Positions 4,533-22,439 of a stretch of DNA of 26,529 nt are shown here, piece by piece. Position 1 is the first letter of the stretch. Every line of letters starts with the position of its first letter. The notes below the pieces were generated by a model. The model had not been told where the DNA came from, did no database searches, and saw nothing but the letters and a program-made list of their open reading frames with translations. Origin of the DNA: an uncultured bacterium (GTDB taxonomy: Bacteria; Omnitrophota; Omnitrophia; Omnitrophales; CAZPNG01); assembly GCA_964587845.1 (NCBI GenBank), contig CAZPNG010000154.1:1-26529 (forward strand), written 5' to 3'. The translations under genes were made by a program, and so were the position numbers.

Positions 4533-4554
4533 CGCGAAACACTGTCCAAAAATT

Positions 4555-4614
4555 AGGAGGCGTTATCAAAGCCGATCCCTGAAGGGTCAGCTCTGATAAC
4601 GCCTCCTGTTTTTT
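4555..4614. terminator. Probable bidirectional intrinsic terminator
   Basis: Perfect 14-bp stem AGGAGGCGTTATCA (4555-4568) / TGATAACGCCTCCT (4594-4607), with further pairing in the 25-nt interior. An A-run precedes it (4548-4552) and a T6 run follows (4609-4614). It lies between convergent transcription units. Confidence 0.7.
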
Positions 4615-11790: not shown

Positions 11791-14274
11791 GTGTCGCGGC
11801 GTTTTCCATTTCTTCATTTTTTCCTCTTCCTGACGGCGGGAATCCTCATCCAGCCCGTTGCTTTCCGGTCCTGGCCGGGTGTTGGAATCTGTGCGGCCGG
11901 GGCCGGGCTTTGCGCAACGGCCGTCCTGGCCTGCGAGCTGCTACCCGGTCTTCTCAAGGTGAGAGCGAACGCGTGGTGGCGCGCCCGCGGGTTCGCGGCC
12001 CTTTTGGGTTTTGCGATTTTTTTCTCCGGGGTCGTTTCGAGCTACTGCTTTTTTTCCGAGACGGCGGGCTGCGCGCTATCAGTCGGTCCCGCCGAGATCG
12101 AGGGCGACATTGCGGGGCCGGTGGAGGTCGTTCGCCGCGGCCGGCAGCGCCGTGTCGCCTTTGAGCTGGAAACGCTTGCCGGGGGGCCGGCGCCCCCACC
12201 TCCGGTCTCTCGACCTTCGGGGACTTGCCAGCCGACCCGCTTTCAGCGGGTGCCCCGGCTGCCGGCGCGAGCGCGCGTGCAATGCTTTCTCGTCAACCCA
12301 CCGGGGTCTCTGCGCTCCGCGGACCGCGTTCGCCTGGCCGGGCGCCTGGAGGATCCGCCCGGCGCGCGCAATCCGGGCGAGTTTGATTACGCGGCGTTCC
12401 TGCGCTCGCAAGGAATTCGATATGTGTTCCGGGGAGTCGGGACCCGGAGCGTGCTGGGAGGGGTGCGCCGCCGGCCGGCCTCGCTCGCCGCCTGGTTTTA
12501 CCGAATGCGGGGAATGCTCTCCACCCGTCTGGCGCGCGCCATGCGCCCTCCGGAGGGGGACCTGGTAGCCGCCCTCTGCCTCGGCGAGCGGCGCGGCCTG
12601 TCACCGGAACTCACGGCCGATTTCGTGCGCACGGGCCTCGTGCACGTGATCGCCGTGAGCGGTTTCAACGTGTGGCTCCTCGCCGGCGGCCTATGGGGCG
12701 CGCTCAAGCTTTGCGCCGTCCCGCCCCGCATGGCCGTGGCGGCCTGCCTGGCCACGGTGGGCGGATACGTGTTTTTGTCCGGCGCGCCCGTGACCGTGGT
12801 GCGGGCGGCGTGGATGGCCGCCGGCGCGTTTCTCGCGGTTCTCCTGCGGGAGCCGGCCGCGTCGCTCAATTTCCTGTTTTTTGCAAGCTTTCTCATTTTG
12901 TTCGCCGACCCCGGCGCCCTGGCCTTGCCGTCGTTTCAACTTTCCTTTGCCTCTTCGCTCGCGCTGCTCACGCTGGCGCCCCGTCTAGACATGGGCTCCG
13001 GCAGCGGACGGCCGCGAAGCCGCAAGCGCGCGGCGAGAAGCTGGAGAGCCGCGCGCTGGCTCGCCCGGCAAGTTTTCTCCTCCCTCAGTGTGAGCGCAGC
13101 CGTCTTGATCGGCGCGGGGCCCGTGAGCGCCTGGCACTTCCATGCGCTCTCGCTCGTGTCCGTTTTGGCCAACCTCCTCGTGCTGCCGTTGTTTGTGCTG
13201 GCCATGTGGTGCGCGCTGCCCGGCCTTGTGAGTTTGGTGGCCTGGCCGCCGGCGGCATCCGTGTTTCTCGAGGGCGCCCGGGTGCTTCTCGGCGGCGCTG
13301 TGGCGTTGAACGGTTATCTGGCACGGCTGCCCGGGTTCTTTCCGGTGCCGAAGGCCGCGTGGGGGTGGCTGGCGCTCGGATGCGCTTTCCTCGGGGCCTA
13401 TGCTCTGGCGGGCCGGGCGGGGGCCCTCCGGGCCCTTTGGCCCGTAGGGCCGGGGGCAGGCAGGATTTCCCGGCTGCCTCGCCCTGCCTATCTCGCCGGG
13501 GCGGCGCTCGCCGTACTCGGGGGGCTTGTTTTCTCGGCCGCCGCTCGCGAGCAACCCTTCTCGTTCACGGTCCTCGCTGCGCGGCAAGGATTTGTCGCCC
13601 TGGCTCGCATGCCGGGCCGGGCCCCCGTGTTGTTCAACACGGGCGGCGGCCGGTCGGGCCGCGGCGTCTTTTGGCTCACGCTTCCCTATTTGCGCTCCCA
13701 GGGCGTTCGGCGCTTGAGCGGCTTGGTCTTGCATTCCCTTTCTGCCGCCGACGCGGGCGGCCTTGCGGTGCTGGGCCGGCAGGTAGAGGTGGGTAGGGTC
13801 TTCGTGCCTGCGAAGGACGCAAAACGCGCGGCCGCCGTGGACCCTTCCGTCGGACGGAGGATGAGCGTTTATCGCCTCCGCGAGTCGCTGCAGCTTGAAC
13901 CCGGGACAGGAGTCGCGCAGCGCGTAGCGCCTTTTGCATGGATGTTCTCCGGCCGGTCCGTCAGGATCGCTGTGCTCATGTCTGCTCGAGCTTCCGGCGC
14001 CCTCGGCCTGCGAAATCAAGGGGGCTGTTTCGATGCGGTCGTCTTGGCTGCCGGCTCAAGCGGCGAACGCAAGGGTCCGTGGGCGTCCTACGCGAAGCGG
14101 TGCCCCGAAACGGTCATGGTCACCGCCGACAAGAAGGGGGATGGCGGCTTTCTTCGAGGGCTCGGGTTAAGGAGTTTCGCGACATCGGCGTGCGGTATGG
14201 TTCGGCTCATCGAGTCGCCGGCCGGGCAGGTTGCGGTCGAAACCTTTCTCCCCTGTTCCTCGCTGCACGTTTGA
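11791..14274 (+). CDS. comEC: ComEC/Rec2 DNA-uptake membrane protein with a degenerate beta-lactamase-fold C-terminus and a 25-aa insert
   Basis: SD AGGAGG before GTG. N-terminal TMs, OB-fold region (LAGRLEDPPGARNPGEFDYAAFLRSQGI), competence domain (ALCLGER..TGLVHVIAVSGFNV..VVRAAWM..PSFQLSF) and a C-terminal MBL-like region. Confidence 0.9.
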   Translation: MSRRFPFLHFFLFLTAGILIQPVAFRSWPGVGICAAGAGLCATAVLACELLPGLLKVRANAWWRARGFAALLGFAIFFSGVVSSYCFFSETAGCALSVGPAEIEGDIAGPVEVVRRGRQRRVAFELETLAGGPAPPPPVSRPSGTCQPTRFQRVPRLPARARVQCFLVNPPGSLRSADRVRLAGRLEDPPGARNPGEFDYAAFLRSQGIRYVFRGVGTRSVLGGVRRRPASLAAWFYRMRGMLSTRLARAMRPPEGDLVAALCLGERRGLSPELTADFVRTGLVHVIAVSGFNVWLLAGGLWGALKLCAVPPRMAVAACLATVGGYVFLSGAPVTVVRAAWMAAGAFLAVLLREPAASLNFLFFASFLILFADPGALALPSFQLSFASSLALLTLAPRLDMGSGSGRPRSRKRAARSWRAARWLARQVFSSLSVSAAVLIGAGPVSAWHFHALSLVSVLANLLVLPLFVLAMWCALPGLVSLVAWPPAASVFLEGARVLLGGAVALNGYLARLPGFFPVPKAAWGWLALGCAFLGAYALAGRAGALRALWPVGPGAGRISRLPRPAYLAGAALAVLGGLVFSAAAREQPFSFTVLAARQGFVALARMPGRAPVLFNTGGGRSGRGVFWLTLPYLRSQGVRRLSGLVLHSLSAADAGGLAVLGRQVEVGRVFVPAKDAKRAAAVDPSVGRRMSVYRLRESLQLEPGTGVAQRVAPFAWMFSGRSVRIAVLMSARASGALGLRNQGGCFDAVVLAAGSSGERKGPWASYAKRCPETVMVTADKKGDGGFLRGLGLRSFATSACGMVRLIESPAGQVAVETFLPCSSLHV
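12188..12268 (-). mobile_element. 75-bp palindromic element plus 6-bp direct repeat, in-frame within comEC (copy 1)
   Basis: CGGCGC at 12188-12193 and 12263-12268, exactly 75 nt apart. 12188-12269 is the reverse complement of 21265-21346 at 81/82 positions. It encodes [23 protein letters not shown] within ComEC. Confidence 0.85.
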
Positions 14275-19258: not shown

Positions 19259-20925
19259 AACCTTCTCATTCTCCAGGCGCGCGCGGCGCGAGAGCCGGCT
19301 CGCCGCATCTGACTGATTTACACGGCGCCCCGGCCGAAGAGGGGTCTGTCTTCGCGGGCCCGGCGAGCGAGAAGCTCGCGCTCCTGAAGCACGCCCGCCA
19401 AGTGGGGTCCTTGACGCTCGCCAGCCGCGTGGTCGGCATGTTTCGCGACATCGTCAATGCGGGCCTCTTCGGCACCGGCATGGTGTGGGACGCGTTCGTC
19501 TACGCCTTCATGATTCCCAACTTCCTGCGGGGTCTCGTGGCCGAGGGGGCGCTCTCGAGCGCCTTCATTCCGGTGTACGCTCAGGTCAGGAAGGAGGGCG
19601 GCCCTCAAGCCGCCTTTCGCTTCGGCCGGCTGATCTTAAACGGGCTGGCCATCGCCTGGCTCGGCGCGCTCGCCCTCGTGTACCTCGCCCTGGCGTGGGT
19701 CCCGCAGGCGTTTGGTTTAAGCCCCAAGCTCGCGCTCGCGATCGAGCTCCTTCGGGTCGTCTTCCCCTACATTGTATTTCTGTCGCTGGCGGCCGTGTGC
19801 ATGGCGATGCTCAACTCGGAAAACCACTTTGTCATTCCCGCGCTGTCTCCCTGCCTGATGAATTTCATCTGGCTCCTCGCCGTCGGGGTGGCCTGTCCGC
19901 TGGCGGGTGGCAGCCTCGAGCGGCAGGCCTTTGTGTTGGCCGCGATCGTCTCGGTGGGGGGCTTGATTCAGCTTGTCTTGAACGGCGGGGCGCTCTCGCG
20001 GCGGGGATTCCGGTGGCGTTGGGAATGGAAGCACGATGACCCGCTCGCCGGGCGGTTCTTCGCGCTCCTGGCCCCAGCTGCTCTCGGCTATGCCATTACC
20101 CAGGTGAACCTGTTCATCGATCTCTCGTTCGGATTTTTCCTGGGTGACGGCGCGAGTTCCAGTCTTTGGTACGGCAACCGGCTCATGCAGTTTCCCATGG
20201 GAATTATCTCGATCGCCATGGCCACGGCGCTCTTCCCGCTCTTGAGCCGCGCCGCGGCCTCGCGGGATCATGTGCAGCTTGAGGAGACCCTGACCTTCTC
20301 GCTCAAGACCGTGTTCCTCATCATCTTGCCGGCCAGCGCCGGCCTGATCGTCCTCTCGGAGCCCATCATGCGGGTGCTCTTTGAGCGCGGGCGCTTTGAC
20401 GAGGTGTCCACGCTGCGGGCGTCCCGCGTGCTGGTTTGCTACGCCATCGGCCTTTTTGCGCACTCTGGATCCAAGCTCCTGCGCGCCGCGTTTTATTCCC
20501 TGCAAGACGTGAAGATGCCGGTGCGCGTCGGCGCCGCCGCGGTGACGCTCAACGTGGTGTTGAACCTCATCCTCATGCGCTATCTGGCGGAAGCGGGCCT
20601 GGCGCTCGCCACCACCTTGAGCGGGATCTTCGAGTTCGCCGTCTTGATGGTGCTCCTCAAAGCGAAGATTCACTTCCCGGGTGCGAGGGCCCTGGCGCGC
20701 GTTTCCCTGCAGGCCCTTGCGGCGAGCGCGGTGATGGCGGCGCTCGTGACGGTCTTGTTCGACTGGATGTCTGCGCGCCTTGCGCCGATGGGCTTCTGGG
20801 GCGAGGCCCTGGCGCTCGCCGCAGTCATGGCTCTGGGCGCCGCGGCCTACGCGGGGCTGGCGCGGCTTTTCGGCGTGCGCGAGCTGGCGCGTGCCGTCCA
20901 AACGTTGTCCAGAAAGGCGCCGTGA
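19252..20925 (+). CDS. murJ: Lipid II flippase MurJ (start codon uncertain)
   Basis: TLASRVVGMFRD..DAFVYAFMIPNFLRGLVAEGALSSAFIPV, YGNRLMQFPMGI, LFERGRF, FYSLQDVKMP, GLALATTLS. The first ~38 codons look non-homologous. Confidence 0.93.
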   Translation: MSKPSHSPGARGARAGSPHLTDLHGAPAEEGSVFAGPASEKLALLKHARQVGSLTLASRVVGMFRDIVNAGLFGTGMVWDAFVYAFMIPNFLRGLVAEGALSSAFIPVYAQVRKEGGPQAAFRFGRLILNGLAIAWLGALALVYLALAWVPQAFGLSPKLALAIELLRVVFPYIVFLSLAAVCMAMLNSENHFVIPALSPCLMNFIWLLAVGVACPLAGGSLERQAFVLAAIVSVGGLIQLVLNGGALSRRGFRWRWEWKHDDPLAGRFFALLAPAALGYAITQVNLFIDLSFGFFLGDGASSSLWYGNRLMQFPMGIISIAMATALFPLLSRAAASRDHVQLEETLTFSLKTVFLIILPASAGLIVLSEPIMRVLFERGRFDEVSTLRASRVLVCYAIGLFAHSGSKLLRAAFYSLQDVKMPVRVGAAAVTLNVVLNLILMRYLAEAGLALATTLSGIFEFAVLMVLLKAKIHFPGARALARVSLQALAASAVMAALVTVLFDWMSARLAPMGFWGEALALAAVMALGAAAYAGLARLFGVRELARAVQTLSRKAP

Positions 20926-22439
20926 AGGACCTAAAGGAAACCGTGCGCGCTCTGCCCCACCGGCCGGGCGTTTACCTGTTCAAAGACAAGGATGCGGGGG
21001 TGCTGTACATCGGCAAGGCCGCGGACCTGCGCAAGCGCGTGGCTTCCTATCTGACCCAGCGTTGGAATAGCCCCAAGCTCGAGGCCATGACGGGCAAGAT
21101 TGCCTCCGTGGATTGCGTGGAGACGCCGACCGAGGTGGAGGCGCTGCTGCTCGAAGCGCACCTCGTCAAAGAGCTCGAGCCCCGATACAACACGATGCTG
21201 CGGGACGACAAGAGCTACCCGCTCTTGAAGATCTCCGGCGAGCGGTTTCCGCGCCTCTCGCTTGCGCGCCGGCAGCCGGGGCACCCGCTGAAAGCGGGTC
21301 GGCTGGCAAGTCCCCGAAGGTCGACAGACCGGAGGTGGGGGCGCCGCGGGCAAGACCGGCGCGCCTCTTACTACGGCCCCTTTACGGACGCCAAACTCTT
21401 GCGGGAGGCGATCCGCATCATCAACACGATCTTCCCGCTGCGCAAGTGCCAACCGCTCCCCAAGCGGGAGTGCCTGTATTATCATCTGCACCAGTGCCTG
21501 GCTCCCTGCATCAAGCCCGACGTGAAGCCAGAGTACGACCGCGTGGTCGGAGAGGTGAAGCGCTTTTTGGCGGGCGGCAAGAAAAGCTTGATCGAGTACC
21601 TCACGGAGCGCATGGAGGAGGCGGCCGGGGAGCTTCGCTTTGAAGACGCTCAGATGTTTAAAGAGCAGCTTGACGCGCTCTCGCGCCTGCGCCGCCGCCG
21701 GTTCCATCCCGCACAGCCCCCCGGCCGTGCGGTGGCGCTCTCAGCCACCCAGGAGTTGAAGTCCGTCTTTCGGCTCAAACGGCTTCCCGAGCGCATCGTC
21801 TGCTTCGACGTGTCCAACGTGCAGGGCGCTTACGCGACCGCCTCGCGCGTGAGCTTTTACCGCGAGCTGCCCGACAAGAACGAGTACCGCCGCTACCGCA
21901 TCCGCACGGTGCGGGGCATCGACGACTACGCCATGATCCGCGAAGTCGTGACGCGCATGATCTGCGGCCTGCGGGAAGGGCGGGAAGCGTTTGATCCCGA
22001 TCTCCTGCTGATCGACGGGGGCAGGGGGCACTTGTCCTCGGCCCTGCGGGCCATGAAGGCGGAGGGCTACGAGGGCCCTCTCGTGGTGGCCATTGCGAAA
22101 CGCTTCGAGCACCTGTACACTTCTCACTCACCGGGGCCGGTCGTGCTGGAGCGGGATTCCTCGGCCCTTCGGCTGCTCATCCGCGTGAGGGACGAGGCGC
22201 ACCGTTTCGCGGTCAGCTACCATCGCTTGTTGCGCTCCAAGGGCTTGCAGGCGTCACTCCTGGACCACATTCCGGGCGTGGGCGAGGAACGCAAGCGGCA
22301 ACTTTTGCGCGCGTTCGGGTCCGTGGAGGCGATTCGCGACGCCGAACCGGCCGTGCTGGCGAGACTGCACGGCATGAATGCGGCGATCGCGCACCGGGTC
22401 AGTTCCTATCTCGCGCGGGCATCGGGAAGTGCGGCGTAA
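20922..22439 (+). CDS. uvrC: Excinuclease ABC subunit C (505 aa, including a 25-aa insert)
   Basis: GTGA overlap with the murJ stop. GIY-YIG domain [40 protein letters not shown], Cys cluster [16 protein letters not shown] motif, RNase H-like [26 protein letters not shown] and HhH IPGVG. Confidence 0.96.
21266..21346 (+). mobile_element. 75-bp palindromic element plus 6-bp direct repeat, in-frame within uvrC (copy 2)
   Basis: GCGCCG at 21266-21271 and 21341-21346, 75 nt apart. Internal hairpins CAGCCG..ACCCGC-TGAAA-GCGGGT-CGGCTG and GGTC-GACA-GACC. It encodes [25 protein letters not shown]. Confidence 0.85.

Follow-up and report, generated by a model that had tools for sequence, protein, structure and literature searches.

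The uvrC gene in the 26,529-nt stretch of Omnitrophota DNA analysed here (denoted as the window) encodes a nuclease that carries 25 residues in excess of the usual UvrC within one short segment, and the question arises where these residues come from and whether the protein makes use of them. We consider it probable that they stem from a small non-autonomous mobile repeat that inserted recently and in frame; on this reading the insert is a passenger and not an adaptation. The coordinates of the features referred to below are collected in Table 1.

Table 1. Features of the element, its copies and its host genes. Coordinates refer to the window unless a contig is named.
Feature	Coordinates	Strand	Description and basis
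Repeat copy 1	21266..21346	+	81 nt; net insertion 75 nt = 25 codons; repeat pair, depth jumps at both ends, empty alleles in X7 and X10
Left GCGCCG hexamer	21266..21271	+	target-site duplication or crossover core; repeated 75 nt downstream; one left in empty sites
Right GCGCCG hexamer	21341..21346	+	as left hexamer; one hexamer in common at the joint 21341->21267 of head-to-tail dimers
Hairpin A	21272..21306	+	folding; outer stem GCAGCC/GGCTGC, inner stem ACCCGC/GCGGGT, loop TGAAA
Hairpin B	21310..21342	+	folding; outer stem GTCCCC/GGGGGC, inner stem GGTC/GACC
uvrC coding sequence	20922..22439	+	505 aa; Pfam domains and Omnitrophota homologues; start chosen from sequence reading
Repeat copy 2	12188..12268	-	antisense to comEC, in frame; Pro-rich 25-aa insert in the N-terminal DUF4131 region
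comEC/rec2 coding sequence	11791..14274	+	827 aa; Pfam DUF4131 and Competence; homologues; hosts copy 2
Repeat copy 3	L003 992-1072 (JGI contig Ga0114945_10223785)	-	92.6% identity, same two hexamers, intergenic

The GTG start codon of uvrC overlaps the stop codon of the upstream murJ gene (GTGA, window 20922-20925), and the gene contains neither a frameshift nor a premature stop. Pfam assigns to the encoded protein a GIY-YIG domain (residues 15-90, E = 1.9e-8), the RNase H-like endonuclease domain PF08459 (281-431, E = 1.1e-41) and a helix-hairpin-helix region (HHH_5 and HHH_2, 446-499), and PF27096 (UvrC_M) is present in the precomputed domain matches of this UvrC and of its homologues. In a PDB sequence search the solved GIY-YIG structures 1YD6 and 1YCZ align to residues 3-99 and the entries 2NRT and 3C65 match the C-terminal nuclease/HhH part with E values of about 1e-39; for the middle region (UvrC_M), which holds the insert, the search returned no solved structure. 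Across the alignments with 17 and 120 UvrC sequences the residues Y29, R39, E78 and N90 of the GIY-YIG site are invariant, as are C176, C192 and C196 of a cysteine cluster, with C184 nearly so, and D296, D365 and H427 of the C-terminal nuclease. All of them are kept in the window, and a UVR-like helix ('RFEDAQ') is conserved in the middle region. The statement of an earlier, sequence-only reading that the domains downstream of the insert are intact is in accordance with these data. A second uvrC allele bearing the element occurs in run X8; of the 40 codons that can be listed across two X8 contigs as changed relative to the window, 26 are synonymous, and the non-synonymous changes cluster in a linker of low model confidence. 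Taken together, the open frame, the retained catalytic residues and the mostly synonymous changes argue for purifying selection on uvrC.

The closest relatives of this UvrC in a collection of 5.8 billion proteins are from Candidatus Omnitrophota and are mostly 473-490 aa in length. They share only 56-57% identity with it, and the window thus belongs to a lineage of Omnitrophota that has been sampled poorly. On the Omnitrophota contig L001 (1700-9850) the genes follow the order TPR/YfiO-like, holA, murJ, uvrC as in the window, with lptE and rpsT additionally called within this stretch.

The segment from FPR to YYGPF comprises 21 residues in 105 of the 120 Omnitrophota UvrC homologues vs 46 residues in the window, a difference of exactly 25, and in the 17-sequence alignment a 25-residue block following FPRLSLARR is found in the window UvrC alone. 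The sequence-only reading had described a clean in-frame insert of 25 codons, the removal of which gives back the usual UvrC segment. Both alignments place a gap of exactly 25 residues where it had been expected, and the natural X7 and X10 alleles devoid of the 75 nt match the restored segment. The peptide had also been called basic, in agreement with its seven arginines, one lysine and one aspartate (net charge given as about +7); the native loop is Lys/Arg-rich in the homologues too.

In an AF2 model based on the 120-sequence alignment (mean pLDDT 84) the insert, residues 118-142, is located in a loop between the strands 111-115 and 149-151, with pLDDT values below 50 for residues 123-141. 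This model replaces an earlier run with 17 sequences, which had yielded pLDDT below 50 over residues 93-202 and was discarded. Thus, the proposed location in a loop is borne out by the model of the insert-bearing protein, whereas the proposal that the element splits the GIY-YIG domain is not, since the insert lies beyond the core of this domain in both the Pfam and the PDB delimitation given above. Most likely the insert forms a disordered basic loop extension that is tolerated by UvrC; presumably it is translated and UvrC activity is retained.

Variation in the length of this loop occurs naturally, as 14 other Omnitrophota UvrCs of the 120 possess 1-37 extra residues, resulting in segments of 22-58 aa. 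These inserts are situated in the same FPR...YYGPF loop as that of the window, but their sequences are unrelated to it. The sole one examined further, the 20-aa loop insert of P0060, differs from the window element in not being repeated: no second copy is present in the 20-kb locus L001, and a GTDB search gave three chance-level matches only. Its DNA (L001 8669-8791) is a long imperfect palindrome of the form GAGTCT-CGCCTCTC-GAAA-GAGAGGCG-GAA-AGACTC. The loop inserts of P0011, P0087 and P0105 look related to one another.

In a repeat search of the window, positions 21265-21346 (82 nt) pair with 12188-12269 on the opposite strand with 99% identity and one mismatch; in a shuffled-sequence control, a 24-mer taken from the repeat gave 0 matches. 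The insert therefore belongs to a repeated element, as had been claimed, and the 82-nt stretch reported earlier is a real repeat, although its extent is refined here to a unit of 81 nt. At the position of the second copy, a ComEC relative of 61% identity is without exactly 25 aa.

Naturally empty sites are found for both host genes. In contigs of related strains from the public groundwater runs X7 and X10 the uvrC sequence ...CTCTCGCTTTC is joined directly to GCGCCGCGGGCAAG..., with the 75 nt absent and a single GCGCCG present. At the comEC site exactly 75 nt are missing from an X10 contig, 6 nt of which can be assigned to the one side or the other, and X8 is empty there as well. As filled sites contain two GCGCCG hexamers 75 nt apart and empty sites only one, the 81-nt unit is composed of a net insertion of 75 nt and 6 duplicated nt.

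The same boundaries are obtained when public contigs are aligned to the region. The word depth rises from about 5-6 in the uvrC flanks to 85-280 over 21266-21346, jumping exactly at the ends of the element (runs X1-X3); lower ratios of element to flank depth are observed in X4 and X5 (about 7 and 10). In public contigs many distinct and unrelated flanks start at 21265/6 and at 21346/7. Furthermore, head-to-tail dimers that share one GCGCCG (joints 21341->21267 and 12261->12187) are present in X1-X3. These depth jumps, the varied flanks and the joints leading back by 75 nt define the unit as 81 nt bounded by GCGCCG. Dimers of this kind are expected if every copy offers further hexamers as targets, or if slippage of the unit occurs during replication. 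There are roughly 7-40 copies of the element per genome equivalent, a number obtained from summed community k-mer depth, in which some copies may belong to other hosts.

The element has a G+C content of about 77%, vs 64% for the window. It forms two hairpins, and its near-palindromic ends pair to close the structure (+ strand including flanks: -57 kcal/mol, z = -2.65). Variants of the element recur in public contigs at positions 21300, 21304, 21306 and 21317. At 21306 the exchange G>C prevails in X2 and in one of the two tallies for X1, and this majority variant has a perfect outer stem in hairpin A. Terminal inverted repeats are not above chance, the best end-to-end inverted alignment scoring 6 vs 6.7 +/- 1.5 in 500 shuffles; only the near-palindromic hexamers pair between the termini. 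Promoter- or terminator-like sites are absent from the element, and an Rfam scan of 21100-21500 (E <= 10) returned two chance-level matches only and neither a ribozyme nor an intron. No transposase, TnpA or RAYT gene is present in the window. The 75 nt amount to 3 x 25 and are stop-free in five of the six frames, so that most insertions into genes would preserve the reading frame. Elsewhere in the window (4548-4614), convergent ORFs are separated by an inverted repeat of 31 nt flanked by an A-run and a T-run (AAAAATTAGGAGGCGTTATC...GATAACGCCTCCTGTTTTTT), which looks like a bidirectional terminator.

The element was detected only in sequencing runs from three studies (five or more independent runs) and on one JGI contig, L003. 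Three full copies are known together with their flanks, those in uvrC, comEC and L003, and all of them bear GCGCCG at both ends. The L003 copy is situated between divergent genes on a contig of 55% G+C, at a distance of about 70 nt upstream from a short-chain dehydrogenase gene, for which the nearest genomes are MAGs labelled Planctomycetia or Omnitrophota. In hairpin A of this copy the inner stem ACCCGC/GCGGGT is kept, with the loop CGCCG instead of TGAAA. This third copy suggests that the element has spread beyond the lineage of the window. In the groundwater runs X12-X14 many element copies are present (depth up to 58) without this uvrC, and the hairpin A loop of some copies in X12 and X13 is longer by three bases (after 21291-21293).

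Exact-pattern scans of the GTDB genomes with three different element cores gave no match. In the JGI metagenomes a first element pattern found nothing and a second one the single contig L003, which was also the sole match in a blastn search of the element against 83 loci (518 kb). A protein search for other host proteins, using five joined open-frame translations, yielded no match either, but was insensitive to a degree that the window UvrC itself was missed. A search for RNA sequencing runs returned none.

The window contains the hexamer GCGCCG or its complement at 99 places, including four inside the two copies, and only two sites are occupied. It had been remarked before that both host genes handle DNA and that this may be coincidence. 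The latter looks right at roughly 7-40 copies, because many unrelated flanks exist, the target hexamer is abundant and the third copy is intergenic.

The element was compared with several classes of short bacterial repeats. The Rickettsia palindromic elements (RPE) are short, hairpin-forming, multi-copy selfish repeats of about 150 bp that reside in frame in unrelated housekeeping genes and encode a peptide compatible with the host protein fold (review PMC10969869). Likewise, the window element is found in frame in protein-coding genes, with both uvrC and comEC open and extended by 25 aa each. The window element departs from the RPEs so described in size and base composition, measuring 75 nt (81 with hexamers) at about 77% G+C compared with about 150 bp. 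Moreover, RPEs inhabit AT-rich obligate intracellular Alphaproteobacteria, whereas the window element belongs to free-living or epibiotic groundwater Omnitrophota, and it is set apart by its constant GCGCCG at both ends, its natural empty sites and its tandem dimers.

Bacterial MITEs, for example Coxiella QMITE1/2 and the Neisseria Correia elements, at times also give rise to in-frame fusions and basic peptides, and for some of them insertion in frame into housekeeping genes is reported (PMC5896051; PMC10969869). The window element resembles MITEs in being small, non-coding and multi-copy (81 nt at 7-40 times the flank depth), in lying between short direct repeats and in showing a target-site duplication, with one GCGCCG in the empty and two in the filled site. 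Classical MITEs end in inverted repeats and are flanked by direct repeats that vary in sequence; in the window element, by contrast, inverted termini are not above chance and, atypically, one and the same hexamer is found at all three full copies. Elements derived from IS200/IS605 and REP/REPIN sequences, which are mobilised by Y1/HUH enzymes, lack inverted termini, carry hairpins near their ends, insert beside a short specific sequence and are excised seamlessly. In IS200/IS605-type elements the hairpins near both ends are similar, and insertion takes place 3' of a fixed short sequence without duplication. The window element carries hairpins near its ends and a fixed hexamer, but the former are unlike each other and the latter is found on both sides. 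REPs are palindromes of 20-40 nt tagged by a GTAG or CGTC head (PMC3733652). By direct reading, GTAG, CGTC and their complements are absent from the 81-nt unit. No report of elements of this kind in Omnitrophota came up in a literature search. The window element is a further example of the phenomenon known from RPEs and not a new kind of system.

Of 660 positions compared, 40 (6.1%) differ between the window and the element-bearing uvrC allele of X8; this comparison, like those with X7 and X10 below, is based on contigs of about 4x depth. The 81-nt element is nevertheless identical in the two alleles, and no differences occur between 21244 and 21349; given the divergence of the flanks, zero change in 81 nt has a probability of P ~0.005. 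X7 and X10 share the flank variants 21383, 21395 and 21399 with X8, yet their site is empty. X8 holds about 1-3 copies of the element, and three X8-specific substitutions (21349, 21353, 21368) are found within 22 nt downstream of it. An identical element despite a flank divergence of 6% is not explained by the simple picture of an old neutral passenger. The simplest readings of these sequences would be an independent insertion at one uvrC site in two lineages, or a precise loss together with a homogenisation of the element copies. Homologous recombination is unlikely as the cause, as the tract would need to end within 22 nt on one side of the element and 3 nt on the other. Since the identity extends over all codon positions, it points to the youth of the uvrC copy and not to selection at the protein level.

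Integration is precise, takes place in both orientations and duplicates or recombines at GCGCCG. A mechanism consistent with these observations would start with integration of the element at a GCGCCG hexamer, which ends up on both sides. In uvrC, the element would have landed in the loop between two β-strands, just past the GIY-YIG nuclease core. Insertions inside genes would survive because the length of 3 x 25 nt and the five open frames keep the ORFs open. Mobilisation would presumably depend on an enzyme whose gene lies elsewhere and which recognises both the hairpins and the hexamer. Conjecturally, a small circular or single-stranded 75-nt intermediate would recombine at GCGCCG, which would account at once for the same hexamer on either flank, for the dimers and for empty sites that are seamless. 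Going further, one may think of a site-choosing, 'homing-like' mobile DNA of an undescribed mechanistic type. Such a unit of 75 nt, with two hairpins and no inverted termini, would integrate at GCGCCG, possibly via the tiny circular or single-stranded intermediate, would be selected for translatability (3n length, five open frames) and would have hit the same uvrC site independently in strains differing by 6%. This extended reading is tentative and in our view rather doubtful.

Several other explanations of the extra residues have to be weighed against the insertion of a mobile passenger. The basic 25-aa loop might have been co-opted, in line with the suggestion of the sequence-only reading that it may alter DNA binding; it would then change the DNA binding of UvrC or its interactions with partners and be kept by selection. 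Its net charge, the Lys/Arg-rich native loop of the homologues and the unchanged uvrC copy in two alleles with flanks diverged by 6.1% would be compatible with a function. However, the unchanged sequence includes all codon positions, as in a young copy, a closely related strain lives without the insert, AF2 predicts it to be disordered, and the same element read in another frame yields an unrelated Pro-rich peptide in ComEC, which together make co-option unlikely. The opposite outcome, an inactivation of uvrC with the gene now decaying and the frame open merely by virtue of the 3n length and recency, draws on the undiverged element, as a very recent insertion would have left too little time for visible decay, and on the lack of a solved structure of the insert region by which tolerance could be judged. 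Against decay stand the absence of frameshifts and stops, the retention of all invariant catalytic and cysteine positions, the preponderance of synonymous changes (26 of 40 codons) between two element-bearing alleles, the extra residues that 14 other Omnitrophota UvrCs accommodate in this very loop and the preserved translational coupling with murJ. We consider an inactivated gene to be still less likely than a co-opted loop.

The 75 nt could also be removed before the protein is made, either from the RNA at the repeated hexamers or from the DNA in expressing cells. Folded as RNA, the element has a strong structure (-57 kcal/mol, z = -2.65); it is bounded by direct repeats, and alleles precisely lacking 75 nt do exist in nature. 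A strand-specific RNA mechanism could not serve both copies, though, as these are oppositely oriented with respect to their host genes, and no Rfam family, ribozyme or intron is matched. In the runs containing the window strain no joint skipping 75 nt is seen, bearing in mind that contigs would hide rare forms, and the 3n length with its open frames is what is expected of an element that is translated. An excision of this kind appears very improbable. Finally, a lineage-specific expansion of the loop, a local duplication or an assembly artefact would dispense with mobility altogether, and the loop is indeed variable in length within the phylum. This view is hardly tenable, being already contradicted by the data: the same 81 nt are found in comEC and in an unrelated JGI contig, many other flanks exist at 7-40 times the flank depth in at least five independent runs from three studies, and empty sites are known for both uvrC and comEC.

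Elements of this type have practical consequences, since they break short-read assemblies at each copy, as seen in the Logan contigs, and put spurious-looking inserts into protein alignments. In-frame selfish repeats in essential genes are a rarely documented route to new protein loops, for which Rickettsia provides the best-known case. The Omnitrophota case adds an uncultured phylum and unusually clean evidence, with filled and empty alleles of two genes in close natural strains. Its integration is specific for a hexamer, and both the length and the reading frames of the element look tuned to survival inside genes. The tolerance of a DNA-repair nuclease towards an insertion, the movement of the element and the re-targeting of one and the same site thereby become testable.
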